A stretch of 38,094 nt of DNA from an uncultured Syntrophobacterales bacterium (GCA_903903205.1 CAIUXU010000189.1:1-38094), one strand, 5' to 3'; shown: positions 6,349 to 18,447, counted from the stretch's first letter. Notes: generated by a model from the sequence alone, not told the origin. Made by a program: numbers and translations.

Positions 6349-7913
6349 CGAAACTGGAATCCTTCTCCGCCTCCATCATCGATCGCCTCCAGGAGTTCGC
6401 CTCGCACCGCTCCGCCCTCGCGCGCCATCGCTACCTGATCGGCATGAATCCACAGAAACGCTCCGAGATGTACGCCGCCGCGAAAACCACCCGGCTGACC
6501 GGCGCCTGGTCCATCGCAAACGCGAATGTAAACGACATCATCGGCCTCTCCAACCCCGCGATTCGCTCCCGCGTCCGCCAACTGATCCGGGATTTCCCCT
6601 ACCTGGCCCGCGCCGCGAATGTGATGGTCGATTATTCCATCGGTCCCGGCATCATGTTTCAGTCCAAGGCCAGGGGAGCAAGCGGCAAACCGGACAAACG
6701 CCGGATACAGCAGATCGAAGACGCCGTCCACTGGTGGATGGACGAAGCCGACGCAGCAGGCAAACTCCACTTCAACGAGATCATGCGTCTGGCCAAGCGC
6801 CAGGACCTTGAGTCCGGCGAATTCGTCATCGTGAAAACCTACCCGAAAACCGCGAACCGCTTCCTGCCGTTCGCCCTCCAGGTCTACGAGGCGGATTGGC
6901 TCACCGGCGCGCATGACAGTTACGGCGCCGGCGGCATCGGCATGGCGTCCGCCCCCGGCGACAAGGAGACCCGGCAGGGCATCGAATACGATAAGCAGAC
7001 CGGCCGCGTCACGGGTTACTGGTTTATGGACCCCTACTATGGCGGAAAAGAGGTCTATGTCCCCGCCGATCAGGTGATCCATGGCTTCGACACCCTTCGC
7101 CCTCAGCAGCTCCGGGGCGTCTCTCCCTTCGCGCCGGGAGTCCAGGTGGCCCACGACCTCTCCGACTACATGGATGCGGAGATCGACACGGCCAAGATGG
7201 CCGCCAAATATCTGGCCTTTATCAAGACCCCCGATCCCTCCTTCCGCCAGGATGCGCTTGCATTGAACGGCACATCCGCCTCCGGCGCGACCCAGAAGAT
7301 CGAAGAGATGGAAAACGCGATCATCGAATATCTCCGCCCTGGCGAAGAGGTGGACATCGCCCAGCACAACCGCCCCGGCGCCACCTTCGCCCCGTTCGTC
7401 CGCCTGGTTCTGACGATGCTCTCGATCACGACGGGCGCCCCCTATGAATTGATATCCGGCGATTACCAGGGCCTGAACTTCTCCACGGCGCGGATCGTCC
7501 GGAACGATTTTAGTCAGCAGCTCCGCCCGGTCTCCGTGCGGCACATCCGTCAATTCGGGATGCCTGCCCTGCGGACGATGCTGGACGTGGCCGTTTTGTC
7601 CGGGAAGCTCACGCTCCCCGGCTATTGGCAAGATCCCCGGCGCTATCAGGAAAGCGAATGGCAGCCGCCGGGAATGGAAGCGGTCGATCCGCTGCGCGAA
7701 GCAAAAAGCCAGATCGAGGCGATCAGTTACGGCCTGAAATCGCCCCAGGAGGTAGCCCGCGAGCGCGGCAGGGATCTTGAGGATATCTACGATGAAATCA
7801 AGGCCGCAAAAGAGATGGCCACAGAGATGGGGCTTGAATTCGCAAGCGCCAAGACCTCGGTGAAGAGCAACCCTGCCGCCATCCTGCAGGAAGTCGGAGG
7901 AGTCAGCACATGA
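6345..7913 (+). CDS. Portal protein, lambda (gpB) family
   Basis: 522 aa from ATG 6345 (ATGA overlap with gpW). N-terminal pattern: AAKTTRLTGAWSIANANVNDII...IRSRVRQLIRDFPYLARAANVMVDYSIGPGI. Position follows TerL/gpW. Confidence 0.8.
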   Translation: MTKLESFSASIIDRLQEFASHRSALARHRYLIGMNPQKRSEMYAAAKTTRLTGAWSIANANVNDIIGLSNPAIRSRVRQLIRDFPYLARAANVMVDYSIGPGIMFQSKARGASGKPDKRRIQQIEDAVHWWMDEADAAGKLHFNEIMRLAKRQDLESGEFVIVKTYPKTANRFLPFALQVYEADWLTGAHDSYGAGGIGMASAPGDKETRQGIEYDKQTGRVTGYWFMDPYYGGKEVYVPADQVIHGFDTLRPQQLRGVSPFAPGVQVAHDLSDYMDAEIDTAKMAAKYLAFIKTPDPSFRQDALALNGTSASGATQKIEEMENAIIEYLRPGEEVDIAQHNRPGATFAPFVRLVLTMLSITTGAPYELISGDYQGLNFSTARIVRNDFSQQLRPVSVRHIRQFGMPALRTMLDVAVLSGKLTLPGYWQDPRRYQESEWQPPGMEAVDPLREAKSQIEAISYGLKSPQEVARERGRDLEDIYDEIKAAKEMATEMGLEFASAKTSVKSNPAAILQEVGGVST

Positions 7914-10006
7914 AGATCGAAACCCTCAGCCGCCGCGACGCACCCGCGCCCCCGGAGATGAACTACCGCTCCGCGCCGTTTTCCGTCCGGGCGGACGGCC
8001 CGACGACGCTGGACGAAAAGAGCCGTTCCGTCGAGGTTGTCCTCTCCACGGAGAACCCGGCCACGGTGTACGACTACGACCGCGGCCGGATCAGCGAGGT
8101 CCTGCTGATGGACGGCGCGCAACTCCCGGAATCCCGGCAACTTGTCCTTTTGGACGCGCACAGCCGTTATGAAACCCAGGATGTGATCGGCTCCGTCCGC
8201 GAGATCCGCGTCGAGGGGGGGAAGATGGTCGGCCGTGCCTTCTTTTCGACGGCGCCAGAGGCCGAATCCGCCTGGACGAAGACCCGCGAGGGCCACCTGA
8301 CCGACTATTCGGTCGGCTACCGGGTGGACGAGTCGGTCTGGATCCCCGAAGGACAGACGTCTACCATCTCCGGCCGCACATTTTCCGGCCCGTTGCAGGT
8401 CTCCACGAAGTGGACCCCGCGCGAACTTTCCGCCGTACCGATCGGCGCAGATGCCGCCGCCAAGGCGCGCACCGACAATCAACCCATCAATCAACCCAAC
8501 AAGGAGGAAAAGATCATGGATCCCAAGTTACGAAGTTTTCTCGAAAGAAGCGGTATGTCGAAGACGGCGACCGAAGCGGAAGCCTGGCTCTTTTTGGAGA
8601 CCATCGGCAAGCGCGAAGAGGCCGCCCCGGCGACAGGAACAGCCCCCGCAACGATGCAGTCAGCCGCCCCGGACCTCGACAAGATCCGCACCGAGGCCAC
8701 CGGCAAGGAGCGCGACCGCATCCGCGAGATCGATGCGCTCTTGACCAAATACGAATGCCAGGAGCTGGCCCGCGAACTCATCGTCGGCGATCCCGGCAAG
8801 GAACCCCCGACGGTTGCCGACGCCCAGCGCAAGGTTTTGGACTCGCTCCAGACCAAAAGCGCGAAGCAGAACCCCGGCTTCGGCGGTGTCGTGATGGGCG
8901 CGGACGAGAAAGACAAGTTCCGGGCCGCCGCAAACGACGCCCTCGCGCTCCGCGCCGGCATGGAGATCAAGACCCCTGCCCAGGGCGCCCAGGATCTCCG
9001 GGGCTACACGCTGGTCGAAATGGCCCGCGAATGCCTGCGGATGGCCGGGATAAACCACCACGGCGGGACAAAGGAGATGGTCGGCCGCGCGCTCACCTCC
9101 TCCGATTTCCCGAACATCCTGGCGAACCTCGCCACGAAGTCGATGCAGCAGTCCTGGGAATCGGTCTCCGAGACCTGGCAGACCTGGTGCGGGATCGGCT
9201 CCGTCAGCGATTTTAAAACCTACTACGACAACGCCCTCTCCGAGCACGATGACCTGGAAGAGGTCCCCGACTCCGGCGAGATCAAATTCGGCAGCTACAG
9301 CGAGAAGACCCCCGAGACCTACAAGGCGGCCTCCTACGCAAAGAAGTTCCGGATCACCCGCGTCATGATCCTCAATGACGACATGGGCGCACTCACCGCC
9401 ATGCCCGCGCGCAGGGCGGAAGCGGCTGCCCGCAAGGTGGGCGACGTGGCCTACGCGGTGCTGACCGGCAACGGCGCGATGGGCGACGGACACGAGATCT
9501 TCGATGCGACCGACCACGCCAACGACGCCATCTCCGGCTATACCTCCGCCCCCGGCGTCACGAACATCGCCGAGGCGATCCGGGCGATGGGCGTCCAGAA
9601 GGATATCTCCGGGAAACGGCGGCTCAATATCCGCCCCGTGTTCTTCCTCGCCCCGAAGGCGCTGGAGGGCGTGTCGGAAGTTTTCTTCAAGTCCGAGCGG
9701 TTCTCCGACAACAGCACCGTGGCGACCGATTCCAGTTTCGCCTCGACCCGCGCAAACCCCTACAGCGGATCCTATTTCACCCGGATCTACGAGCCGCGCC
9801 TCGATGACGCTGACGCCTCCGGGTGGTATCTGATGGGGCCGAAGGGCCGCACCGTGAAGGTGGTCTTCCTCAACGGTCAGCAGGCGCCGACGATGGAGAT
9901 GAGGCAGCCCGGATTCACGATCGAGGGGTTCGAGTACCTGGTCGCAATCGACGCCGGCGCGTACGCGACCGATTACCGCGCCATGTACCGCAACCACGGC
10001 GAGTAG
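7910..10006 (+). CDS. Prohead protease (HK97/S78-type) - scaffold-like linker - major capsid protein fusion
   Basis: N-terminal S78 motifs: LLDAHSRYETQDVIGS (His), LTDYSVGYRV (Ser), ELSAVPIGADAAAKA. A charged helical linker follows. The C-terminal ~370 aa is capsid-like. It is a single 698-aa ORF whose ATG overlaps the portal stop (ATGA). Confidence 0.75.
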   Translation: MKIETLSRRDAPAPPEMNYRSAPFSVRADGPTTLDEKSRSVEVVLSTENPATVYDYDRGRISEVLLMDGAQLPESRQLVLLDAHSRYETQDVIGSVREIRVEGGKMVGRAFFSTAPEAESAWTKTREGHLTDYSVGYRVDESVWIPEGQTSTISGRTFSGPLQVSTKWTPRELSAVPIGADAAAKARTDNQPINQPNKEEKIMDPKLRSFLERSGMSKTATEAEAWLFLETIGKREEAAPATGTAPATMQSAAPDLDKIRTEATGKERDRIREIDALLTKYECQELARELIVGDPGKEPPTVADAQRKVLDSLQTKSAKQNPGFGGVVMGADEKDKFRAAANDALALRAGMEIKTPAQGAQDLRGYTLVEMARECLRMAGINHHGGTKEMVGRALTSSDFPNILANLATKSMQQSWESVSETWQTWCGIGSVSDFKTYYDNALSEHDDLEEVPDSGEIKFGSYSEKTPETYKAASYAKKFRITRVMILNDDMGALTAMPARRAEAAARKVGDVAYAVLTGNGAMGDGHEIFDATDHANDAISGYTSAPGVTNIAEAIRAMGVQKDISGKRRLNIRPVFFLAPKALEGVSEVFFKSERFSDNSTVATDSSFASTRANPYSGSYFTRIYEPRLDDADASGWYLMGPKGRTVKVVFLNGQQAPTMEMRQPGFTIEGFEYLVAIDAGAYATDYRAMYRNHGE
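8501..8518 (+). promoter_or_regulatory. Strong internal in-frame RBS plus ATG inside the protease-capsid ORF
   Basis: AAGGAGG at 8501-8507, 8-nt spacer, ATG at 8516-8518, in the same frame as 7910. It sits exactly at the end of the protease domain. Confidence 0.5.
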
Positions 10007-10083
10007 GCGGCGGACCATCCATCAACCGACAGGGGGGGACCGTTCCCGCCCATAGATGAACGAAAACAAGGAGGAACATCAAC

Positions 10084-10701
10084 ATGGCTACCAACAAAGT
10101 TCAGGATGGCAAAATTATTCGCCTAACCGTCGGTTCGACCGTCGATTCCGGCGATCCGGTTGTGGTCGGCAATGCCCTTCGCGGCGTCGCCCTGACCGAT
10201 TACGATTCCGCCGACGGCAAGGCGTCGGTTGAACTCGGCCCCGCGGTCTATGACCTCAGCGTCACCGCAACGGACGCCGCCGGAAACAGCGCCGTCGCGG
10301 TCGGCGACCGCCTCTATACCGACGGCACGACGATCACGAAAAAGCAGTCCGGAAAGTTCTTCGGCGTCGCGCTGGAAATCGTCACCACCGGCAGCACCGG
10401 GACGATCGAAGTCCTGGTCGGCGCTCCGAACGGTCCGGACCGGGCGTCGCATCAGGTATTCGCCGCGGGGATCAATGTCGTCAATGACAGTCCGCTGGCC
10501 GCTGCGGAGTTCATCCCGGTCACCGGGATTCTGGCGACGGATGTGGTGATCTGCACGTTGCACATAAACGGCGGATCGCCGAAGCTCACCATCGTTACGG
10601 TGACAGCGGCGGCTTCTCCCGCGGGCATCACGGTGACCGCCTCCGGAGTATTCACCGCCTCCGACGCGATCAACTACTGCGTCCTGCGGGCGGCCCTGTA
10701 G
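10084..10701 (+). CDS. DUF2190-type head decoration/cement protein with ~90-aa C-terminal extension
   Basis: AAGGAGG RBS. The N-terminal ~115 aa fit the DUF2190 pattern (GDPVVVGNALRGVALTDYDSADGKASVELGPAVYDL...GDRLY...FGVALE). The C-terminal part is T/A/S/V-rich (TIVTVTAAASPAGITVTASGVFTAS). Confidence 0.65.
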   Translation: MATNKVQDGKIIRLTVGSTVDSGDPVVVGNALRGVALTDYDSADGKASVELGPAVYDLSVTATDAAGNSAVAVGDRLYTDGTTITKKQSGKFFGVALEIVTTGSTGTIEVLVGAPNGPDRASHQVFAAGINVVNDSPLAAAEFIPVTGILATDVVICTLHINGGSPKLTIVTVTAAASPAGITVTASGVFTASDAINYCVLRAAL

Positions 10702-10710
10702 CAAGTACGG

Positions 10711-10750
10711 AAAAGCGGGGAGAGGATGCTGCAAAAGTCGCCCCGCTTTT
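10711..10750 (+). terminator. Possible attenuating hairpin after the decoration gene
   Basis: AAAAGCGGGG (10711-10720) pairs with CCCCGCTTTT (10741-10750). The loop is long (20 nt) and the T-run lies within the stem, so it is weak as a terminator. Confidence 0.3.
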
Positions 10751-10772
10751 CCCCACCAAAGGAGGCAAAGGC

Positions 10773-11102
10773 ATGTACAAGAATCACATCCTCAAAGCCC
10801 TGGCGAAGACCGAGGCCACCGGGGCGCAGACGCTCGGCAACCGGGGGTTTGAATACCTGCCCCACCATCAGATCCAGATCGAAGTCTCCGCGCAGCCGAG
10901 CGCCGGGACGTTGAAGATCGAATACCTCTCCCCCGGCTCAACGGAATATGTCGAGGTCTCGGGCAGTCCGGTGGCCCTGACGACCCTGAACAAAGCGGCC
11001 GCGTTTCGCCTGGATGACGTCTTTGTCGATTCGCTCAGGTTTACACCCACAAGTTTCGACGCAGACAAAACCTACAACGTCATCGTGACCAGCAACGAGT
11101 AG
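10773..11102 (+). CDS. Hypothetical virion-module protein
   Basis: 109-aa ORF with AAGGAGG RBS. Beta-rich sequence, no family recognised. Confidence 0.6.
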   Translation: MYKNHILKALAKTEATGAQTLGNRGFEYLPHHQIQIEVSAQPSAGTLKIEYLSPGSTEYVEVSGSPVALTTLNKAAAFRLDDVFVDSLRFTPTSFDADKTYNVIVTSNE

Positions 11103-11105
11103 CGA

Positions 11106-11255
11106 ATGAAAGACGACCCGATCCTCATCACCCCCGCCCTGCGGGAGATTTGTCTGACTCCGGCGGAGGCTGTCTCCGCGACGGCGACGCCGATCCGCGA
11201 CGAACTGGGCGGGATTCTTCGTGATGAGCAGGGGCTCCCTGTTCTGGAGGGTTGA
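11106..11255 (+). CDS. Small 49-aa ORF in the head-tail connector region
   Basis: Not in the track. ATG 11106 lies 3 nt after the previous stop and ends 2 nt before the next ATG. MKDDPILITPALREICLTPAEAVSATATPIRDELGGILRDEQGLPVLEG. Confidence 0.4.
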   Translation: MKDDPILITPALREICLTPAEAVSATATPIRDELGGILRDEQGLPVLEG

Positions 11256-11257
11256 CC

Positions 11258-11566
11258 ATGGGACTTAGGGCCGTATTCGCCGCAGCCCTCCCCGGCATCT
11301 TCCAAGCCGCCGGCGAGGAGGCCTCTTTCGCCCCCGCGACGGGCGCCGCGATCCCCTGCATGGTCTTTATCGATTTTAACGTGCAGCTCCAGCCCGCGGG
11401 CCTCGAAACGCAGATCTGGCAGCGCGGGACAACGATCGAAGCCCTTCTCACCGAGATCCTCCGCGAGCCGGACCGCGGCGAAACCTTCACGGTGGACGGC
11501 ACGACCTACACGGTCCAGGCGATCCTCGAAAACGACGGGCTCACGGTCAAGGCGGTGGTTTCATGA
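11258..11566 (+). CDS. Head-tail joining protein (lambda FII-like pattern)
   Basis: ATG 11258 is preferred over the track's TTG 11252. The pattern ...IPCMVFIDF...GETFTVDGTTYTVQAILENDG resembles FII-type head-tail joining proteins. Position fits. Confidence 0.45.
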   Translation: MGLRAVFAAALPGIFQAAGEEASFAPATGAAIPCMVFIDFNVQLQPAGLETQIWQRGTTIEALLTEILREPDRGETFTVDGTTYTVQAILENDGLTVKAVVS

Positions 11567-12165
11567 TCACAGTCAAACTGAATCCCAAAGACGTGGAGGG
11601 CATAAAAAGCATGCTCTCCAAACTCACGCGCGACGAGGCGGACGCGGCGCTGGTGAGGGGGATCAACACGACAATGACCGGCGTCCGGACCGACGGCACG
11701 AAGATCCTCTATGATCACTATGCGCTGACGGCCACGGCGATCCGTGCTTCCTGGAATATCAGCAAGGCCAGATTCCGCGACCCCTCCGGCGTCATCTCCT
11801 GCCAGGGGACGTTTATCCGCCTGAAAGAGTTCGGCGCGATCGCAAACAAGGCCGGCGTCTCCGTCAAGGTGCTGCGAGAGAATCCGCGCAAGACCATCAA
11901 ACACGCCTTTTTCGCGAAACTGAAACAAAACGACCAGGTTTACTGGCGGAAATACAACGGCCCCCGCTCGAAGATGGTCGCCAACAAGGGCTATTACGCG
12001 AATTTGCCGTTTCAGTACCGCTTCCCGGTCGAAGCGCTTTATGGCCCACGCATCCAGGATTATCTGGGCGATCCGCAGATCATCGGCACACTGGAGAACA
12101 TGGCCGGCGAGCGGATCAGCAAGAACATGGAACGTGAAATTGACGCGATCCTGAGGGGGTTTTAG
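11563..12165 (+). CDS. Minor tail protein, gpZ-like
   Basis: 200 aa with an ATGA overlap. Its layout (RGINTTMTGVRTD...IRLKEFGA...GVSVKVL...HAFFAKL...YGPRIQ) resembles lambda Z / prophage minor tail protein Z. Confidence 0.45.
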   Translation: MITVKLNPKDVEGIKSMLSKLTRDEADAALVRGINTTMTGVRTDGTKILYDHYALTATAIRASWNISKARFRDPSGVISCQGTFIRLKEFGAIANKAGVSVKVLRENPRKTIKHAFFAKLKQNDQVYWRKYNGPRSKMVANKGYYANLPFQYRFPVEALYGPRIQDYLGDPQIIGTLENMAGERISKNMEREIDAILRGF

Positions 12166-12669
12166 ATGGCGAACACCATCCGCGAGTTGATCGTTCAGGA
12201 GTTCATCGCGCGCGCCGCGGTCATGCGCCACGTCGATTCACCCGCCTCCGGCTACGAGACGGAGATCGGCGAAACGGTTCTCCGCGCCCGTCCGAAGGTC
12301 GATCCGGATGATCTCCCCTGCTGTGTCGTCTGGCCGCAGCCCGAGACGGGGGGAAACCTCCACGGCCGCTCCCGCCATGTGATGCCGGTCAAAATCGAGG
12401 GGCTCGCCATGTTCGGGTCGGAGAATCCCTCCGTCGTTTCGGAGCGCATCCTGGGCGACATGATCAAGTGCTTCACGTCGCCCTCCTGGGATCGCCGCCG
12501 GGCGGTTGCCGGATCGCCTGCGACCTACCTCGACCCCTATGCCGAATCGATCCTCTACCAGGGCGGCGGGACGGAATCCGCGCCGGAAGACGGCGCCGTC
12601 TCCATCGGCGTCCAGGCAACGTTTCTGATCACCTACTACACCGCGATCGGAGATCCATATACGCCATGA
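12166..12669 (+). CDS. Tail completion/terminator protein (by position, gpU-like slot)
   Basis: 167-aa ORF directly after the gpZ-like gene. Assigned by position only. Confidence 0.4.
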   Translation: MANTIRELIVQEFIARAAVMRHVDSPASGYETEIGETVLRARPKVDPDDLPCCVVWPQPETGGNLHGRSRHVMPVKIEGLAMFGSENPSVVSERILGDMIKCFTSPSWDRRRAVAGSPATYLDPYAESILYQGGGTESAPEDGAVSIGVQATFLITYYTAIGDPYTP

Positions 12670-13178
12670 ACGAGCCGACAAACCACCTCATCATCACCGG
12701 CTCCGCCCCGGATGTGCTGATCGACATCGCAGGTGTTCCGCGCGTCTGTTCGTATGACTTCATGGCCATCGGCCTTGACGCCGTTGCAAAATACGCCTGG
12801 CCGATCAAATATATGGCTACCTACCATCCTGTCGAGATCCCCGAGATTCGCAAACGGCGGGAGCAGGCGGGCGGCAATACCGACTATCGGGTCGTATCGA
12901 TGGAGGCCCGCGACGGCGTGGACATCGTCGAACCGTTCCGCCCCCCCTCCGGATCGAGCTCGCTCCTCGGCGTGCTGGCCGCCCTCCGGATGGGATACCG
13001 CCGGATCATCCTCTGCGGTTGCCCACTGATCGGGAAGAATGCCGCCGCCGGCAATTACGAAACCTTCCAGGCGGGATGGATCGAGCGGGCCGATGAATTT
13101 CAGGACCGCGTCCGCTCGATGTCCGGATGGACAAAAAAATATTTGGGCCGACCAACGGAGGAATGGCTGAATGGCTGA
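12666..13178 (+). CDS. Rossmann-like protein, possibly a DUF115/MAF-type sugar transferase
   Basis: Start re-placed at ATG 12666 (ATGA overlap with the previous stop). IITGSAPDV near the N-terminus and SGSSSLLGVLAALRMGYRRIILCGCP are reminiscent of GNGPS...G.D Rossmann transferases. Family assignment is weak. Confidence 0.35.
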   Translation: MNEPTNHLIITGSAPDVLIDIAGVPRVCSYDFMAIGLDAVAKYAWPIKYMATYHPVEIPEIRKRREQAGGNTDYRVVSMEARDGVDIVEPFRPPSGSSSLLGVLAALRMGYRRIILCGCPLIGKNAAAGNYETFQAGWIERADEFQDRVRSMSGWTKKYLGRPTEEWLNG

Positions 13179-13806
13179 TATCACCATCTGCTGCATCAAA
13201 TGGGGCACAAAATACGGCCCCGAATACGTCAACAAACTCTATGCGATGGTGCGGAGAAACGTCCTCTGCGTCCCGCACGATTTTGTCTGCTTCACCGAAG
13301 ACCCCACCGGAATCGATCCGGAGATCCGCATCGCCCCGCTTCCGTGCGTTCATCCGGCCTGGTGGCAAAAGGTCGGCCTGTTCCAGGAGAGAATTCCGGG
13401 CGTCGATACAGCGAAGATCTTCTTTATCGATCTCGACATGGTCATCGTCTCGGAAATAGACGCCATGCTCGAATATGATTCCGATTTCACAATCATGCGC
13501 AACTGGCCTCCGGAGATGCACGGGGACGACAACAGCTATATGACCGCCGCTTTCCTGCTCAAAGTGGGAGCGCAGCCGAATGCGTGGCGGTTTTTTGAGC
13601 CCCGCGTGATGCGGGAATATCCCTCCGACCAGGAGTGGATCACCGCCTCCGCCCCCGGCGCCGACCTGTTTCCGTATGACTGGACCCCCAGCTACAAACT
13701 GCGACGCCTGCAAGACCATATCCCGCCCGAGGCGAAGATCGTGGCCTTCCACGGCCTTCCCCGGCCCCACCAGTGCGGCGGATGGGTCAAGGAGTATTGG
13801 AAATGA
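13171..13806 (+). CDS. Glycosyltransferase (GT-A-like, DxD), phage-borne family
   Basis: ITICCIKWGTKYGPEYVNKLYAMVRRN, HDFVCFTED, WWQKVGLF, FFIDLDMVI (DxD) and VAFHGLPRPH match the motif series of a glycosyltransferase family common in phages, as I remember it. It overlaps the upstream gene by 8 nt. Confidence 0.6.
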   Translation: MADITICCIKWGTKYGPEYVNKLYAMVRRNVLCVPHDFVCFTEDPTGIDPEIRIAPLPCVHPAWWQKVGLFQERIPGVDTAKIFFIDLDMVIVSEIDAMLEYDSDFTIMRNWPPEMHGDDNSYMTAAFLLKVGAQPNAWRFFEPRVMREYPSDQEWITASAPGADLFPYDWTPSYKLRRLQDHIPPEAKIVAFHGLPRPHQCGGWVKEYWK

Positions 13807-14369
13807 CGACACGCGAGGCATTCCGCGAGGTTTGGGAAAAGGGCGACTATCGCCAGGGATCGACGGCCCAGCGTCTCGTGCCATTTCTCGCCGATCACAT
13901 CCCCCAGGGCAGCGTGATCAATGACTATGGCGCCGGAACGGGTCGCGCGGAAGTGCAGCTTTCCGCTCGCGGATACCGTGTGAACATGGTCGATATCGCC
14001 GACAATGCCCTGGAAGACGCCGCCCGCGCGCTGATTGGAAACGGGATCACGCACACCATCGCGCCGCTCGATGCGCTTCCGGCCGATTTTCCCGTCGCCG
14101 ACTGGGGTATCTGCATCAACGTCCTGATGTTGGTGGACCCCGACCGCCTCGACGCGATACTTGCCGAGATGCGCCGCACCTGCCGGAATCTGATTGTCGA
14201 GGTGTATGACATGGACGATGTCCGTCTGGGTAGAAACTGGACAACGATCAAGGGAGACGCGGCATGGTGGGCCGCGAAGCTGTCAAATCACTGGCCCGTC
14301 GTGGAATCCCTGGAGAGTCCGGAGCATCCGCGGCGGTATATCACGATCGGAAAGTCAACGGAGAAATAA
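13803..14369 (+). CDS. Class I SAM-dependent methyltransferase
   Basis: Start at ATG 13803 (ATGA overlap). Motif I is VINDYGAGTGR. An acidic residue follows beta-2 (RVNMVDIAD). Size is typical at 188 aa. Confidence 0.7.
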   Translation: MTTREAFREVWEKGDYRQGSTAQRLVPFLADHIPQGSVINDYGAGTGRAEVQLSARGYRVNMVDIADNALEDAARALIGNGITHTIAPLDALPADFPVADWGICINVLMLVDPDRLDAILAEMRRTCRNLIVEVYDMDDVRLGRNWTTIKGDAAWWAAKLSNHWPVVESLESPEHPRRYITIGKSTEK

Positions 14370-14416
14370 CAGAGAGCAGGGCGCCGGTCCTGCCAAACAC
14401 AAAGGAGGATGTACCC

Positions 14417-15448
14417 ATGAGCACCGCCGAAAATGCAAAGATCCAATATGAGTCCGGGCAAGACCTCGTTTCGTTTCTCGCCATCACCGACCAGGGAGAC
14501 CACAAGGATTTCCGGAGCGCCGATCCGCTCTGGTCGAACCGGGCAGGATATGAACCGGATGTGAAACCGAACGGCCTGGCCACCGGGGGAACGGTCTCCG
14601 TCGCCGCCAGCGGAACCAGTGACGTCGTCGATGTCACGGCGCTGACCACGTACCTGGCAGGGGTCTTGACGTCCGTGATCGCGGGAACCAACAAGGCCGT
14701 CACCCGCGGAACCGCTTCCCCGGTCGCACCCTGCAAAAAATCATCGATCACCATCACCGGCGCCGGTGCGATTGCCGTGGTGGCCGGGCTTGAGGGCGCC
14801 GCTTTCTCCACCACGCGCGGCGCGGCGGGCGGCCCCCCCTACATCCTGCCGACCTCAGTCGAGATCTGCCAGATTTGGCTCTCCTCCGCAGCATCATCCG
14901 CGGTAACAGCTTCCGAAATCAAGCAGGTCGTCGGCACCCACTGCGAGCGCTACGACTACCCCACCTGGGAAGAGAATCGATTCAACGTCGAAAGCGGCGT
15001 CATCGGGAATGCTGGCATCACGTTCGCATCGGCGCTTCCCCTGATCCACTCCGCCGCCTCCCCCGTCGTCGGCGTGCCCAAGGCGGTCTATGCCCAGTAT
15101 TACGAACCGGCCTTTACCGACGTCCCGAAATCCGACGCCTTTGTCCCCCCGGAGACCAGCAACTCGGTCAGCTCCAAACAGATTTATGGGACGACGCTCG
15201 GCTCCTCCAGCTCTTCCCTGGGCCAGGGGTCGTTTACCGCCTACCTGCAGGACGGCATTGCGGATGGCATTCTGGCACTAAAGAACATGAATTTGTTCTT
15301 CAAGTTTTTCCAGAACAAACTGAATTCCACGCCTTACCTGGTCATGCAGGGCAAGCTCGGCATCTCCAGGGCGTTCCCCGCAGGCGACCAGATCACCGCA
15401 GCCTGCACGATCTCCGCAGAGTCCGCCGCCGCCGAAGTCACCGGGTAA
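14417..15448 (+). CDS. Putative major tail protein (by position)
   Basis: AAGGAGG at 14402-14408, then ATG 14417; the track ORF starts upstream at 14264. 343 aa, with S/T/A-rich stretches. It lies between the completion genes and the frameshifting chaperone. Confidence 0.5.
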   Translation: MSTAENAKIQYESGQDLVSFLAITDQGDHKDFRSADPLWSNRAGYEPDVKPNGLATGGTVSVAASGTSDVVDVTALTTYLAGVLTSVIAGTNKAVTRGTASPVAPCKKSSITITGAGAIAVVAGLEGAAFSTTRGAAGGPPYILPTSVEICQIWLSSAASSAVTASEIKQVVGTHCERYDYPTWEENRFNVESGVIGNAGITFASALPLIHSAASPVVGVPKAVYAQYYEPAFTDVPKSDAFVPPETSNSVSSKQIYGTTLGSSSSSLGQGSFTAYLQDGIADGILALKNMNLFFKFFQNKLNSTPYLVMQGKLGISRAFPAGDQITAACTISAESAAAEVTG

Positions 15449-15549
15449 CCGGAATGATGCGAAGGGGACAAAATGAGCGAAGGGGGACATGACCCGTATG
15501 CGTTGCATCCGGGATCGTGTCCCCCGAAGCGGTCCCCCGGAGCCTAACC

Positions 15550-16104
15550 ATGAGCAGGCGCAAGCCAGCAAAGCGATATTTCGGAGGCCGTATGCCCTTT
15601 GATTCCAAGAAGTTCCTCAAAACGAAGTGGACCCCCCGAACCGAGGAGGTCCCGGTCCCCGATCTGGCCGCCTTCTTTCCGGCGGGCGCGAAACCCGTCT
15701 GGACGGTCCGTGGACTAACCGGGCACGAGCTCGGCCGGGCAAACGAGGCGTCCGAGCGGAACAAGAACGTCGCCGCAATCCTGGAGGGGATCGCCTCGGG
15801 CGCGTCCAAGGAGCAGACCGAGGCGGTCAAGGAACTGCTCGGCCTCGGCGGCTCTACACCGCAGGACATCGCCAAGCGCCTGGAGCACCTGTCGATCGGC
15901 AGCGTCGACCCCGTATGCGCCCCGGATCTGGCCATCCGCCTCTGCGAGACCTACCCGGTGGAGTTCTTCCAGATCACGAACCGGATCGTACAGTTGACCG
16001 GGCAGGGTCAACTGCCGGGAAAACAGCCGCCCTCTGGAGGGACGCCGAAGTCCGATCCTGCCTCGCCCTCGGTTACGCCAGAGGGCGCTTCCTCTACGAG
16101 TTGA
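15550..16104 (+). CDS. Tail assembly chaperone (gpG-like)
   Basis: It lies downstream of the putative major tail gene and contains the slippery site near its 3' end. An alternative ATG at 15592 has GGAGG 4 nt upstream. Confidence 0.65.
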   Translation: MSRRKPAKRYFGGRMPFDSKKFLKTKWTPRTEEVPVPDLAAFFPAGAKPVWTVRGLTGHELGRANEASERNKNVAAILEGIASGASKEQTEAVKELLGLGGSTPQDIAKRLEHLSIGSVDPVCAPDLAIRLCETYPVEFFQITNRIVQLTGQGQLPGKQPPSGGTPKSDPASPSVTPEGASSTS

Positions 16105-16181
16105 GGCCGGATCTTTTCCCCCAGGGTTTCCTGACGCGGACCGAGCTTGAACTCTGGGAAAAATACTACAAAGGACTCTAA
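15550..16181 (+). CDS. Tail assembly chaperone -1 frameshift product (gpGT-like)
   Basis: A shift at G_GGA_AAA (16017-16023) into the frame of track ORF 15627..16181 adds ~53 aa (TAALWRDAEV...ELELWEKYYKGL). The stop TAA at 16179-16181 overlaps the next ATG. Confidence 0.6.
16017..16087 (+). promoter_or_regulatory. Programmed -1 frameshift signal: slippery heptamer plus downstream stem
   Basis: GGGAAAA lies in the X_XXY_YYZ register of the G frame (codons GGA 16018, AAA 16021). A perfect 10-bp stem, CGCCCTCTGG (16028-16037) / CCAGAGGGCG (16078-16087), starts 4 nt downstream. Confidence 0.6.
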
Positions 16182-16378
16182 TGGAAGCCATTCTGAGCAT
16201 CACTTCGATTAACGGCAGGGTCGTGGAACGCATCCGGGAACGATATACCAATGACGACGAGATCAGGATGCTGCGGAGCAAGCCGAACGCGGAAACGGCG
16301 GCCTACCACGATTGGGTCGAGGAGTGCCTTTATTGGGGGCGACTGGAAAAGGCTAATTTAGGGCTGGAACTGGCATGA
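16181..16378 (+). CDS. 65-aa protein, paralog of the C-terminus of 29159..29572
   Basis: NGRVVERIRERYTNDDEIRMLRSKPNAETAAYHDWVEECLYWGRLEKANLGL versus NQRVVDRIRERYSVNDEIKMLRIGPSTETGAYNDWVEECRTWGRVEKEGLGL. The two share a 21-nt identical block (16308-16328 = 29511-29531). Confidence 0.65.
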   Translation: MEAILSITSINGRVVERIRERYTNDDEIRMLRSKPNAETAAYHDWVEECLYWGRLEKANLGLELA

Positions 16379-16599
16379 CAGCGCAAGAGAATAAAGACAA
16401 CACCTGGAATATATGGGCAAAAAAGGTTCTCAGCGATATCGAGCGGATGGAAGAGAAGCTGGAACTTCTCACGGCAGAATTGGCCAAGTGTTGCTCTGCT
16501 ATAGAGGTGTTAAAAGCTCAGGCGGTCATCATCGGCGGAATCGGCGGAACTCTATCCGCCCTGGCAGTGAGCCTGATTGTGAGGCATCTCTATGGATAA
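16375..16599 (+). CDS. Tail-anchored small membrane protein (coiled coil plus C-terminal TM)
   Basis: ATGA overlap. The C-terminal hydrophobic segment AVIIGGIGGTLSALAVSLIV follows a heptad-like region. It could be a holin/antiholin/spanin-type component. Confidence 0.5.
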   Translation: MTAQENKDNTWNIWAKKVLSDIERMEEKLELLTAELAKCCSAIEVLKAQAVIIGGIGGTLSALAVSLIVRHLYG

Positions 16600-16617
16600 G
16601 AAAGAGGATACTTACTG

Positions 16618-16875
16618 ATGGCAGAACCCACTTTGCGACAACTTACTGACTTGCTGATCCGAACCGACGAGGACCTGCGTTGCCATCAAGAAGAGCTGTA
16701 CGCTCAATCGCAGGAACTCCGTGAAATGCAAAAGCGACTGGCGGTGATCATGCTGGCGCGGGTCGAAGATTTGGTAATGGTGCGGGAAGAAATCAAGATT
16801 GAAATCTGGAAATCCGCACTGCTGAGAGTGCAGAAAACCCAGGGGGTGCGGCATGAGTCGCCTGATACCGTCTGA
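16618..16875 (+). CDS. Hypothetical coiled-coil protein
   Basis: 85-aa ORF, E/L/R/Q-rich, in a lower-GC stretch. Confidence 0.45.
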   Translation: MAEPTLRQLTDLLIRTDEDLRCHQEELYAQSQELREMQKRLAVIMLARVEDLVMVREEIKIEIWKSALLRVQKTQGVRHESPDTV

Positions 16876-17041
16876 GTGCCCGTACTGCGGACAGGCATCT
16901 GTGATCACGCACACGACATGCGAGGAAACAATCTACCGCTGCCAGGGCTGTCTGGACCACTGGACATATCACAACAGGAGACAACGTGGAGAAAAGGCTA
17001 AAATGCCCTCTGTGCCGCAGCTTAAATCTGACGCGGTATGA
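16853..17041 (+). CDS. Small zinc-ribbon protein
   Basis: CPYC-x17-CQGC four-Cys arrangement in a 62-aa ORF. Confidence 0.5.
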   Translation: MSRLIPSECPYCGQASVITHTTCEETIYRCQGCLDHWTYHNRRQRGEKAKMPSVPQLKSDAV

Positions 17042-17195
17042 CGCGGAGGAGAAGACATACGAACTGATCACCTGTGATGACTGCAAACTGATTTGGAAGA
17101 AATTACTGACAGGGCGCTGGGTGGACCCGCTTACAGGCAACGCACGAGGGGATGTGCTGCTGGAGATGCCACATGATGATCTACTACCAGGATAA
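16986..17195 (+). CDS. Small zinc-ribbon protein
   Basis: GTG start, with AGGAG (16976-16980) 5 nt upstream. CPLC-x17-CDDC. Confidence 0.5.
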   Translation: MEKRLKCPLCRSLNLTRYDAEEKTYELITCDDCKLIWKKLLTGRWVDPLTGNARGDVLLEMPHDDLLPG

Positions 17196-17334
17196 CAGGT
17201 GCGATGTGACGAAAGCACACTGCCAGAGAGGGTCGCTCCCGGAGTGCCCGGAGCTGCGAAACGGGTTGGAAATACCCTGTCCGCATTTCGAGCATAAAAT
17301 CCGCAGCGGGTATCAGGTTGATACGAAAGGGTGA
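17173..17334 (+). CDS. Small Cys/His-rich protein
   Basis: GGAG (17162-17165) lies 7 nt before ATG 17173. The 53 aa contain 4 Cys plus HFEH. Confidence 0.4.
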   Translation: MMIYYQDNRCDVTKAHCQRGSLPECPELRNGLEIPCPHFEHKIRSGYQVDTKG

Positions 17335-17443
17335 GATGAGCAGAAAGATCGATCATCGCTGGAATCGGCGTGATCCTCTGGAAGATCTTCCTGGGTCATA
17401 TCGACCTGATCATTAAGTAGAGTCTGCGACACGGGGTGGGGTG

Positions 17444-17863
17444 ATGATCACGGCTCGGCTCATCCGGACGGAAACCTCGGACCAGGGAACCTTTGGGATC
17501 CTGGAGGCCTCCGGATTTGTCTGTCATACGGCCGAGCCTCCCTGGCGAGACAATCAGCCGGGGATCTCCTGCATCCCGCCAGGCGTTTACCTGGTAGAAC
17601 CATGGAACAGCCGCCGTTTTCCACGGACATTCCACATCCGGAACGTTGTGGAACGGGTCGCGATTCTTACCCACACGGGAAATCTGGCCGGGGATCCGTC
17701 GAGGGGATGGCGGCGCCATACCCTGGGCTGCATCCTTCCGGGATTGAAGCGGGGATATATCGAGAAGCAAAGGGCGGTCCTTTTATCGAGTACCGCAATG
17801 AACCGGATCCGGGAGGTGGTAGGTTCCGCCGTCTGGTCCCTGACGATCGAACAGCGGAGGTAA
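17444..17863 (+). CDS. DUF5675-like protein, candidate cell-wall hydrolase (endolysin slot)
   Basis: QGTFGIL...FVCHTAEPPW...SCIPPGVYLV...ILTHTGNLAGD...LGCILPG follows the DUF5675 pattern as I remember it (G..G.L...C.T.E, IP.G.Y, H.GN...D..GCI..G). It sits directly upstream of the holin-like gene. Confidence 0.45.
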   Translation: MITARLIRTETSDQGTFGILEASGFVCHTAEPPWRDNQPGISCIPPGVYLVEPWNSRRFPRTFHIRNVVERVAILTHTGNLAGDPSRGWRRHTLGCILPGLKRGYIEKQRAVLLSSTAMNRIREVVGSAVWSLTIEQRR

Positions 17864-17868
17864 GGGTC

Positions 17869-18447
17869 ATGGATTGGTTGAGCAGCGTTTTCAGCACGGG
17901 CGCATCGGCGCTCTCCGGCGGGATTCTGGGGCTTTTCGGCGGACTCTTTTCGCGCCTGTTTGACTGGCTGACGGTCCGGGAGAAGATCAAGCAGGATAAA
18001 CTCCGCTATGACCACGAAATAGCCGTTTTGCAGATTGAGACACAGCGCGACGTTGTCGTCGCCAGGGAGGAGGCAAACGCCCGGCGCGAAGTCGCCGAAT
18101 CGGAAGCGCTCGGCAAATCCTTCGAAGCGGACCGGGCCACCTACCTGGTCCCGGAGATCGCGAAGGATCTCCCCTCCTGGGCGCGCGGGATTGTCGCCGC
18201 GGTGATGGCCTTTGTCGATTTTGTCCGCGGGATGACGCGGCCGGGGTTAACGCTCTACCTCTGCGTTCTGACGACGATGATCTATATGCAGGTTCAAACG
18301 GCGATCATCAAGGCGGGTGGCGAGCCGATCACCAAAGAGATGTCCTATGGTTTGATCAAACTCATCATCGAAACGGTGCTCTTTTTGACGACGACGGCCG
18401 TGTGCTGGTGGTTTGCCGCACGGGCGAAGTCTGCGCAGGAGAAATAG
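17869..18447 (+). CDS. Multi-TM membrane protein, holin-like (resembles the GTA 3-TM holin family)
   Basis: GGAGG lies 8 nt upstream of ATG 17869. It has an N-terminal Gly-rich TM (GASALSGGILGLFGGLF), a charged helix, then 2-3 TMs around the GMTRPGLTLYLCVL motif. It ends 3 nt before the tape-measure start. Confidence 0.45.
   Translation: MDWLSSVFSTGASALSGGILGLFGGLFSRLFDWLTVREKIKQDKLRYDHEIAVLQIETQRDVVVAREEANARREVAESEALGKSFEADRATYLVPEIAKDLPSWARGIVAAVMAFVDFVRGMTRPGLTLYLCVLTTMIYMQVQTAIIKAGGEPITKEMSYGLIKLIIETVLFLTTTAVCWWFAARAKSAQEK

Follow-up and report, generated by a model that had tools for sequence, protein, structure and literature searches.

In the 38,094-nucleotide stretch of DNA from an uncultured Syntrophobacterales bacterium (GCA_903903205.1 CAIUXU010000189.1:1-38094; the whole stretch is hereafter called the window), three consecutive open reading frames (ORFs), ORF1, ORF2, and ORF3, lie in the tail operon of a lambda-like siphophage between g167, at the tail terminator position, and g343, which encodes the putative major tail protein. 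The island to which this trio belongs is probably a tail (virion) protein glycosylation island. What carries this reading is that, in related phages, ORF1 covaries with short Ser-Pro motifs in two loops of g343; beside it stand the folds and families of the enzymes, the architecture and variability of the island, and the sugar-pathway genes carried by sister islands. The original prediction, which had described the trio as apparently fixed genes of a candidate virion glycosylation system, is partly supported: it was right in substance, and wrong about the stretches of the tail protein that it named as acceptors and about the genes being fixed.

The g343 alignment comprised 68 distinct proteins, 43 from loci encoding ORF1 (ORF1+) and 25 from loci without it (ORF1−). 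The ORF1− proteins divide into 11 distinct ones from loci where g167 abuts g343, with a gap of 15–79 bp, and 14 others, whose gaps contain only a longer g167, small ORFs, a collagen-like fiber gene, or a lysis set. No hidden divergent ORF1 or ORF2 was detected in ORF1− loci by profile hidden Markov model (HMM) searches of all six frames. A Ser-Pro or Thr-Pro dipeptide ([ST]P) is found in loop 1 or loop 2 of all 43 ORF1+ proteins, compared with none of the 11 island-less proteins and one of the 14 others. For loop 1 considered separately the counts are 30/43 ORF1+ and 0/25 ORF1−, and for loop 2, 34/43 and 1/25. Among all 400 dipeptides, SP was the best discriminator between the two groups, with one mismatch, the runner-up having 12, and [ST]P elsewhere in g343 showed no association with ORF1.

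In a neighbor-joining tree of g343 constructed with both loops masked, three ORF1+ clades are interspersed with ORF1− lineages. Parsimony on this tree requires at least six changes of ORF1 state and at least five changes of SP, and one tip of the 68 is mismatched. The changes themselves are small: the ORF1+ locus L113 has SGGSPANTH where the ORF1− locus L114 has SGGEPANTH, in tail proteins that are 87% identical, and in another clade deletions have removed GGSP(L)N, together with SP(A) in loop 2, from the ORF1-less L129 and L154. The Ser-to-Glu change or the loop deletion is found exactly where ORF1 is missing, and three additional ORF1+ prophage sequences, retrieved later, all contain the motif. 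The consensus of 70 sites is (A/G/E)(A/G/T)-S-P-(A/V/L), the central residue being Ser in 69 of them, and the island-linked sites of the window are ASPV at g343 residues 100–103 and 214–217.

A virion protein as target, which the original prediction had proposed, is supported by the covariation of ORF1 with Ser-Pro in g343, but not the Ser/Thr/Ala-rich tail stretches VSVAASGTSDVV and GTTLGSSSSSLGQGS suggested as its acceptors, which are equally conserved in phages without the island. When Ser/Thr columns of g343 were considered as island markers, only position 234 passed, weakly, and the SSSSS stretch is kept in both groups. A third variable stretch of g343 (residues 148–161; nucleotides 14858–14899) has [ST]P in 12/43 ORF1+ and 1/25 ORF1− proteins, as in SSATPAP of L007, and lacks it in the window.

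The ORF1 sequence matched nothing in Pfam, PHROGs, NCBIfam, or PDB sequences, and searches of PDB chain sequences with the ORF1 profile, ORF2, and the g343 profile returned nothing usable. Its family is large and well conserved, without a Pfam model, and includes 335 word-seeded homologs and 1802 clusters (50% identity, E ≤ 1e-3). The AlphaFold2 (AF2) model of ORF1 has a predicted local distance difference test score (pLDDT) of 93, and its best PDB structure matches in Foldseek are the sialyltransferases CstII (E 7e-4) and Cst-I (E 1.2e-3), with a template modeling (TM) score of ~0.63, followed by a Pasteurella sialyltransferase, SteA, and thiamin pyrophosphokinases (TPK). Among predicted viral structures (BFVD), it matched uncharacterized phage proteins and entries named DUF115, MptE-like, or sialyltransferase. 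Alignment of an 87-member ORF1 family profile with CstII by hhalign gave a probability of 81.5% and an E value of 1.1e-5 over 117 columns, pairing I-T-G12-S-A-P of ORF1 with A-G-N-G-P-S of CstII (the N-terminal G-x-G-P-S loop), Y53-H54-P55 with Y50-N51-P52, and S-G96-S-S98...L-G-Y-x-x-I-x-L-x-G with T131-S132-G...L-G-Y-K-E-I-Y-L-S-G. ORF1 has both the N-terminal loop and the T/S-S-G phosphate loop, and their residues G12, G96, and S98 show at least 90% conservation in the wider family.

PF01973 (MptE-like, formerly DUF115) matches 13 of the 87 distant family members (E ≤ 1; best 1.1e-5), and the CST-I Pfam family (PF06002) matches one of them, at E 0.43. ORF1 itself matches neither PF01973 nor PF06002; its link to PF01973 is transitive only, because it is the distant members that match. 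ORF1 family domains are also found fused to GT8-like and Methyltransf_24 domains; the glycosyltransferase part of one such fusion, P0257, scores 19.9 bits with PF01501, under the cut-off of 24.3. Together these matches bear out the first impression of a DUF115/MAF-like protein, and ORF1 is a divergent, minimal (170 amino acids [aa]) relative of DUF115/MptE-like proteins and GT42 sialyltransferases. The sole match to ORF1 in a tblastn search of 50,697 phage genomes was Paracoccus phage Pkon1, whose protein p38 (L159:6977-7843) is 31% identical to ORF1, the ORF1-like part being the N-terminal domain of a 288-aa protein. The p38 gene overlaps the end of the major capsid gene (L159:5995-6984), the product of which contains VTSPATP. 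As the only cultured-phage relative, vB_PkoS_Pkon1 could serve as a culturable test system.

ORF2 matches phrog_1962 "glycosyltransferase" (1.2e-18), and searches of Pfam (E ≤ 0.1) and NCBIfam found nothing, the gathering score of PF01501 (Glyco_transf_8) not being reached. Its alignment-based AF2 model (pLDDT 97, predicted TM score 0.93) gave 342 PDB matches in Foldseek at E ≤ 1e-3, the top ones having a query TM score (TMq) of 0.6–0.69 and E values of 5e-10 to 1e-7: the UGGT catalytic domain (GT24), glycogenin, LgtC, GlyE, and Skp1 alpha-GalT. The motifs that the original prediction had quoted for ORF2 and ORF3 are present. That of the DxD type in ORF2 is F-I-D87-L-D89-M-V-I, in which D87 is invariant in 52 homologs; the C-terminal one is F193-H194-G195-L-P-R-P199, in which G195 is invariant and F193, H194, and P199 are at least 90% conserved. 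This F-H-G-x-P-x-P motif may be the counterpart of the GT8 C-terminal His motif (H-x-x-G-x-x-K-P-W type). As modeled, ORF2 is a GT-A glycosyltransferase, as had been predicted, and is of GT8/GT24 type.

ORF2 search matches occur among phages P1, P7, SJ46, and phi456; the distant homologs PmgQ of P1 ("putative morphogenetic function") and HdmD of P7 are ~25% identical over 82% of the length (E 1e-4 to 5e-4). A Kdo (3-deoxy-D-manno-oct-2-ulosonic acid) hydroxylase gene (PF11004) is found two genes away from a chromosomal homolog of ORF2 in Variovorax sp. RCC_210 (L165:8001-8759 and 9759-10628), and the bacterial homolog in genome L167 adjoins a GT4 glycosyltransferase gene, which hints that bacterial ORF2 relatives act on the lipopolysaccharide (LPS) core.

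ORF3 is a class I S-adenosylmethionine (SAM)-dependent methyltransferase, also as predicted. It scores above the Pfam cut-offs for PF13649 (Methyltransf_25; 35.9 bits vs. 27), PF08241 (Methyltransf_11; 28.4 vs. 21.2), and a TehB-like family (24.2 vs. 20.4), and its motif I is N-D-Y-G-A-G-T-G-R. The nearest solved relative is YtkW (2.7e-5), a small-molecule methyltransferase.

The gene content of the island was surveyed in 80 IMG/VR loci with an ORF1 homolog. The gene g167 is directly upstream in 64 of them, g343 is present in 42, and the distance from g167 to g343 in island phages ranges from about 0.9 to 7.7 kb. ORF2 homologs accompany ORF1 in 44/80 loci and ORF3 homologs in 48/80. Position and ORF1 alone are constant, ORF1 always being the first island gene and a methyltransferase usually the last; the other two genes are optional, and the island is absent from many relatives. 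The smallest islands consist of ORF1 alone (L113, L118–L120) or ORF1 and a methyltransferase (L007, L022, L024, L058). Larger islands carry tandem ORF1 paralogs, GT8-like and GT2 transferases, a hexapeptide-acyltransferase/GT2 (Hexapep-GT2) fusion, Methyltransf_24, a DegT-family aminotransferase fragment closest to PseC/LegC, a NeuD/PglD acetyltransferase (NeuD/PglB/VioB-family sugar acetyltransferase; 2e-46), and, directly after ORF1 in four loci, the cytidine monophosphate (CMP)-Kdo synthetase KdsB (284 bits vs. a cut-off of 234). Such a gene content is that of a glycan-biosynthesis island and closely resembles the islands for flagellin glycosylation. The island remains linked to the tail module (FII, Z, g167, g343) across exchanged head modules, as seen where portals are only 24–30% identical and in a Syntrophales metagenome-assembled genome (MAG) prophage with a lambda E/D-type head. 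On balance, the trio appears to be the local form of a hypervariable glycan island, with ORF2 and ORF3 as optional cargo.

The junction between g167 and g343 is a general insertion hot-spot that also takes nonglycan cargo. A 141-aa gene and a collagen-repeat (G-x-x) fiber-like protein of 762–833 aa replace the glycan island in L129:4811-7740 and L154:5021-7737, L146 has a holin-like gene and a lysozyme, and in L036 two fiber-like proteins of 524 and 553 aa precede ORF1. A longer g167 (234–242 aa), with a mid insertion of ~70 aa (…GGTYEIEVGDTIEGATGGATGYV…), is found in ORF1+ and ORF1− loci alike (L113, L114, L121, L122, L125, L127, L152). Genes that read as homing endonucleases of HNH and LAGLIDADG types occur in some islands (L028:7359-8075; L056, cluster C10; L014:2344-2847, cluster C19); the HNH-like gene has no Pfam match, and such genes, if correctly read, may drive the turnover of island content. 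A methyltransferase split into 61 and 127 aa (L004:1418-1989), considered as a natural knockout, was rejected since a run of N interrupts the scaffold. Unrelated phage modules, too, have glycan-type cassettes with an ORF1 homolog at their head (L071, L073, L078, L079, L085, L063, L049). They follow tail-fiber and lysis genes in myovirus-like contigs or, in L063, immediately follow a major capsid gene. These cassettes appear to include methyltransferases, acetyltransferases, GDP-sugar dehydratase/epimerase-like genes, and even methylmalonyl-CoA-mutase-like genes.

We propose that the trio would be expressed late from the structural operon and would act in the cytoplasm, where ORF1 would recognize (A/G)(A/G)-S-P-(A/V) in the two loops of g343, at Ser101 and Ser215, and probably in g167, the decoration protein, and g109 as well. 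ORF1 would transfer the first sugar from a host-supplied nucleotide sugar, ORF2 would extend this primer by a hexose-type sugar, and ORF3 would methylate the glycan. The priming role is assigned to ORF1 because it is the only universal gene, can stand alone, and by its presence predicts the motif. The donor may be a CMP-activated ulosonic acid such as Kdo, given the GT42 relationship, the phage-borne KdsB beside ORF1, and the diderm hosts; this choice is a possible one on which we would not insist, the balance being somewhat against it. The island content turns over rapidly, which suggests that a glycan exposed at the tail surface is under diversifying selection; any benefit, be it shielding, adhesion, or stability, is speculative.

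The window's decoration protein (AAASPAG), g109, g167 (twice), and g170b contain the same motif in a motif scan, and its conservation in homologs of these proteins tracks ORF1. The C-terminal stretch of the decoration protein, proposed at the outset as a candidate substrate, is among them. In g167 the candidate sites are T104-S-P-S and G116-S-P-A; the SP motif at site 117 is found in 52/58 ORF1+ and 3/25 ORF1− homologs, and the decoration protein motif in 18/20 homologs from ORF1+ loci, with a single ORF1− comparator. These counts, like those for g109, are not controlled for phylogeny, a point against the glycosylation reading.

Several other points weigh against a glycosylation island. An SP loop is retained in one phage without ORF1, L146. 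Some co-inheritance is expected from the physical linkage between ORF1 and g343 and could inflate the association; however, g343 outside the loops shows no co-segregation with the island, and the differences, point changes or small deletions, are confined to the loops. The protein g343 is assigned as tail tube by synteny only. KdsB is found in few islands, and there beside a second ORF1 paralog. ORF1 has no Pfam match of its own, and it resembles GT42 structures to a moderate degree (TM 0.63, E ~1e-3). The acidic G-x-D residue of CstII (G152-I-D154) is replaced in ORF1 by G118-C119-P120, of which G118 is invariant and P120 nearly invariant across the family, and the region of the CstII catalytic residues His188, Tyr156, and Tyr162 is unaligned, ORF1 residues 124–170 falling outside the alignment; conserved catalytic candidates in ORF1 are H54, W138, and S153-G154-W155. 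That the modification is a glycan is inferred, as are the donor, the succession of the three steps, and the benefit to the phage. Finally, the modeled fold of ORF1 is common to pyrophosphokinases (TPK, MptE) and SteA, which makes a nonglycosyl transfer possible.

The most serious rival follows from this last point: ORF1 would make another modification of Ser-Pro (phosphorylation, pyrophosphorylation, or nucleotidylation), ORF3 would methylate the tail protein directly, and ORF2 would act elsewhere. S/T-P is a classical kinase motif, Foldseek returns thiamin pyrophosphokinases and SteA for ORF1, the sole Pfam link of ORF1 is to the MptE-like proteins, a pyrophosphokinase family, and the CstII catalytic residues cannot be mapped onto it. 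DUF115, on the other hand, includes the Maf flagellin glycosyltransferases, and the best PDB and hhalign matches of ORF1 are CMP-sugar transferases. ORF1 moreover co-travels with glycan-biosynthesis cargo (GT8-like, GT2, KdsB, NeuD/PglD, and PseC/LegC-like) and its domains are fused to a GT8-like domain. Even though the infectivity of one mycobacteriophage is affected by host-enzyme methylation of a tail protein (PMC13445384), we regard a nonglycosyl modification as unlikely.

Less likely still is a cassette that modifies the host envelope (LPS core, capsule, or other glycoconjugate), for example in superinfection exclusion or release, its place in the tail operon being incidental. Membrane or export components are absent from the trio, translational coupling joins its starts within the late structural operon, and the island follows the tail module, not head or lysogeny genes. 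These features have to be set against the bacterial ORF2 homologs, which are chromosomal "glycosyltransferases" near a Kdo hydroxylase gene or a GT4 gene, against KdsB being an LPS-pathway enzyme, against the unrelated cargo (fiber genes, lysis set) that the junction also accepts, and against the analogous pair of Citrobacter phage phiNP at a moron-rich site between lysis genes and terS. An envelope function would leave unexplained a tail-protein Ser-Pro motif that comes and goes with ORF1. Hypermodification of phage DNA (glycosylated or methylated bases) against restriction is highly improbable: phage glycosyltransferases and methyltransferases often act on DNA (PMC12619734), but ORF3 matches small-molecule, O-, and tRNA-type rather than DNA methyltransferase families, ORF2 resembles protein- or glycan-directed GT8/GT24 enzymes, no base-modifying enzymes are nearby, placement and expression are late structural, and the Ser-Pro covariation is again unexplained. 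Glycosylation of the tail protein by the trio is the reading that we retain.

The three ORFs have the boundaries originally given to them (Table 1), and their overlapping junctions read as claimed: ATGA at 12666 for the ORF1 start, an 8-nt overlap ATGGCTGA at 13171 between ORF1 and ORF2, and ATGA at 13803 between ORF2 and ORF3. A strong ribosome-binding site, AAGGAGGA, lies ahead of the g343 start at 14417. The trio had been said to resemble the flanking structural genes in GC content; at 0.58–0.61, and 0.73–0.755 at third codon positions, compared with 0.57–0.65 and 0.75–0.85 for the neighbors, it is slightly lower and inside the operon range. Promoter-like and terminator-like sites did not exceed shuffled expectation in a consensus scan of 9500..17500 and none brackets the trio, which, with the coupled starts, fits late co-expression.

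Table 1. Features of the tail glycosylation island predicted in the window and of its candidate acceptor proteins
Feature	Coordinates	Strand	Description
ORF1	12666..13178	+	170 aa; minimal DUF115/MptE-like and GT42-sialyltransferase-like; predicted priming protein O-glycosyltransferase; constant first island gene
ORF2	13171..13806	+	211 aa; GT-A fold, GT8/GT24-like retaining-type glycosyltransferase; predicted glycan extender
ORF3	13803..14369	+	188 aa; class I SAM-dependent methyltransferase; predicted glycan (less likely protein) methylation
g167	12166..12669	+	167 aa; lambda gpU (tail terminator) position by synteny; left island border; possible secondary substrate
g343	14417..15448	+	343 aa; phrog_30644; putative major tail (tube) protein; predicted main substrate
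Loop 1 of g343	14702..14743	+	Residues 96–109, TRGTASPVAPCKKS; predicted acceptor Ser101
Loop 2 of g343	15044..15085	+	Residues 210–223, IHSAASPVVGVPKA; predicted acceptor Ser215
AAASPAG motif (Ser178), decoration protein C-terminal extension (gene 10084..10701)	10603..10632	+	Motif scan; possible secondary acceptor

Upstream of the trio, the gene order is a FII-like head-tail attachment protein (PF05354), a Z-like tail completion protein (phrog_27, 4e-18), and g167; downstream it is g343 (its phrog_30644 family being functionally unannotated), a 170-aa protein in the chaperone position, and, further on, the tape measure. In the window, in its relatives, and in Marinobacter phage PS3, g343 occupies the position of lambda gpV, followed by a chaperone-like gene and the tape measure. 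The 3.3 kb that contains the trio is 100% identical on several independent metagenome contigs, and the DNA of 11500..15500 had no match among 50,697 phage records. The nearest genomic relatives of the window phage are prophages in Syntrophus, Syntrophales, and Syntrophaceae MAGs, and the hosts of these lambda-like siphophages are likely Syntrophales and other diderm bacteria.

Elsewhere in the window, GC content falls to ~0.54 in the region 16181-18447. The chaperone-position gene (15592..16104) and the tape measure (18451) are separated there by extra genes not found in most relatives: three small ORFs, a DUF5675 gene (17444..17863), a gene for a 192-aa membrane-like protein, and, in antisense, an ORF of 187 aa (16793..17356, − strand). 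The major capsid protein (7910-10006) is a 698-aa fusion, the C-terminal part of which is PF25209 (Phage_capsid_4), and the whole protein matches phrog_4523 "major head and protease protein."

The finding points to a mechanistically different and much more widespread form of virion glycosylation, in phages of Gram-negative, largely uncultured hosts. If it is true, it would give a function to ~1800 protein clusters without a Pfam model or annotation, account for a hypervariable hot-spot inside otherwise conserved tail operons, and offer, in a small (170 aa) enzyme with a short acceptor motif, something that could serve glyco-engineering. Concrete test sites would be Ser101 and Ser215 of g343, with the three-gene cassette. 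Diversifying selection on a tail glycan would bear on phage interaction with host surfaces, matrices, and defenses. A wider proposal, tentative and on present evidence rather doubtful, is that the ORF1 family (~1800 clusters at 50% identity) consists of minimal Maf/GT42-like enzymes that act in the cytoplasm as sequon-directed protein O-glycosyltransferases. They would take a host CMP-ulosonic acid (e.g., CMP-Kdo) as donor and (A/G)(A/G)-S-P-(A/V) in phage structural proteins as sequon, and would be the seed of the hypervariable, O-antigen-like glycan islands that many unrelated phages of diderm hosts carry within their structural operons. Were it correct, glycosylation of tails and heads would be widespread among environmental phages and no peculiarity of mycobacteriophages.

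To our knowledge, phage-encoded virion glycosylation has been documented experimentally only in a few actinobacteriophages, where it alters antibody recognition. Secondary accounts describe it for Che8, Corndog, and Myrna (Freeman et al. 2023, Cell Host Microbe, via PMC11600133, PMC12363180, and PMC12619734) and, in cluster O mycobacteriophages, a phage-encoded methyltransferase and glycosyltransferases that modify capsid and tail tube (PMC11600133, citing Freeman 2023). Judged from its genes alone, the system described here would share with cluster O the phage-encoded glycosyltransferases, a methyltransferase (an O-methyltransferase in cluster O), and virion targets that include the tail tube. 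It differs in its diderm (Syntrophales-like) rather than actinobacterial hosts, in a core enzyme that is a DUF115/GT42-like 170-aa protein, in a gene set that varies as an island while its junction within the tail operon is fixed, and in its predicted sites, which are internal S-P loops; the mycobacteriophage glycans are reported to be C-terminal (PMC12619734). ORF2 matches 34 phage records, and no Mycobacterium phage is among the matches listed. By sequence comparison, the enzymes appear unrelated to those of Che8, Corndog, or Myrna.

Maf proteins (PF01973/DUF115) O-glycosylate Ser/Thr of a self-assembling filament subunit, flagellin, in the cytoplasm, and their islands are hypervariable, with genes for a CMP-sugar synthetase, a PseC/LegC-type aminotransferase, a NeuD/PglD-type acetyltransferase, and a methyltransferase. 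This gene content matches the cargo of the sister islands described above. Unlike Maf, ORF1 has only 170 aa, without extra Maf domains or its own PF01973 match, and has G-C-P in place of the family G-x-D; in a phage tail protein it would target what looks like a short sequon, and no strict sequon is known for flagellin glycosylation. CstII and Cst-I of Campylobacter jejuni (GT42) are the best structural matches of ORF1 and share its aligned motifs, but CstII acts on lipooligosaccharide and has ~290 aa, a lid, and the catalytic His188, none of which maps onto ORF1. ORF2 shares with GT8/GT24 enzymes the fold, the DxD motif, and possibly a C-terminal motif of H-x-G-x-x-(K/R)-P type, and several of these relatives glycosylate proteins or extend protein-linked glycans; it differs in being shorter (211 aa), in falling under every Pfam threshold, and in belonging to the phage-rich phrog_1962 family.

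In Tetraselmis viridis virus S20 and Citrobacter phage phiNP, a small DUF115/CST-like protein adjoins an ORF2 homolog (hmmsearch 7e-38 and 8e-37, respectively). S20 (L169, NC_020840, 122-5705) also has a methyltransferase, the cassette being just upstream of the head-closure, tail-terminator, and major-tail genes, and in phiNP (L170, 4466-5651) the pair lies between Rz and terS. Both small proteins are auto-annotated "alpha-2,3-sialyltransferase"; membership in the ORF1 family was rejected for them, the HMM match covering only 35 residues, and a literature search found no function reported for either pair. By analogy, the island in the window would work like the mycobacteriophage and Maf systems while being a member of neither.

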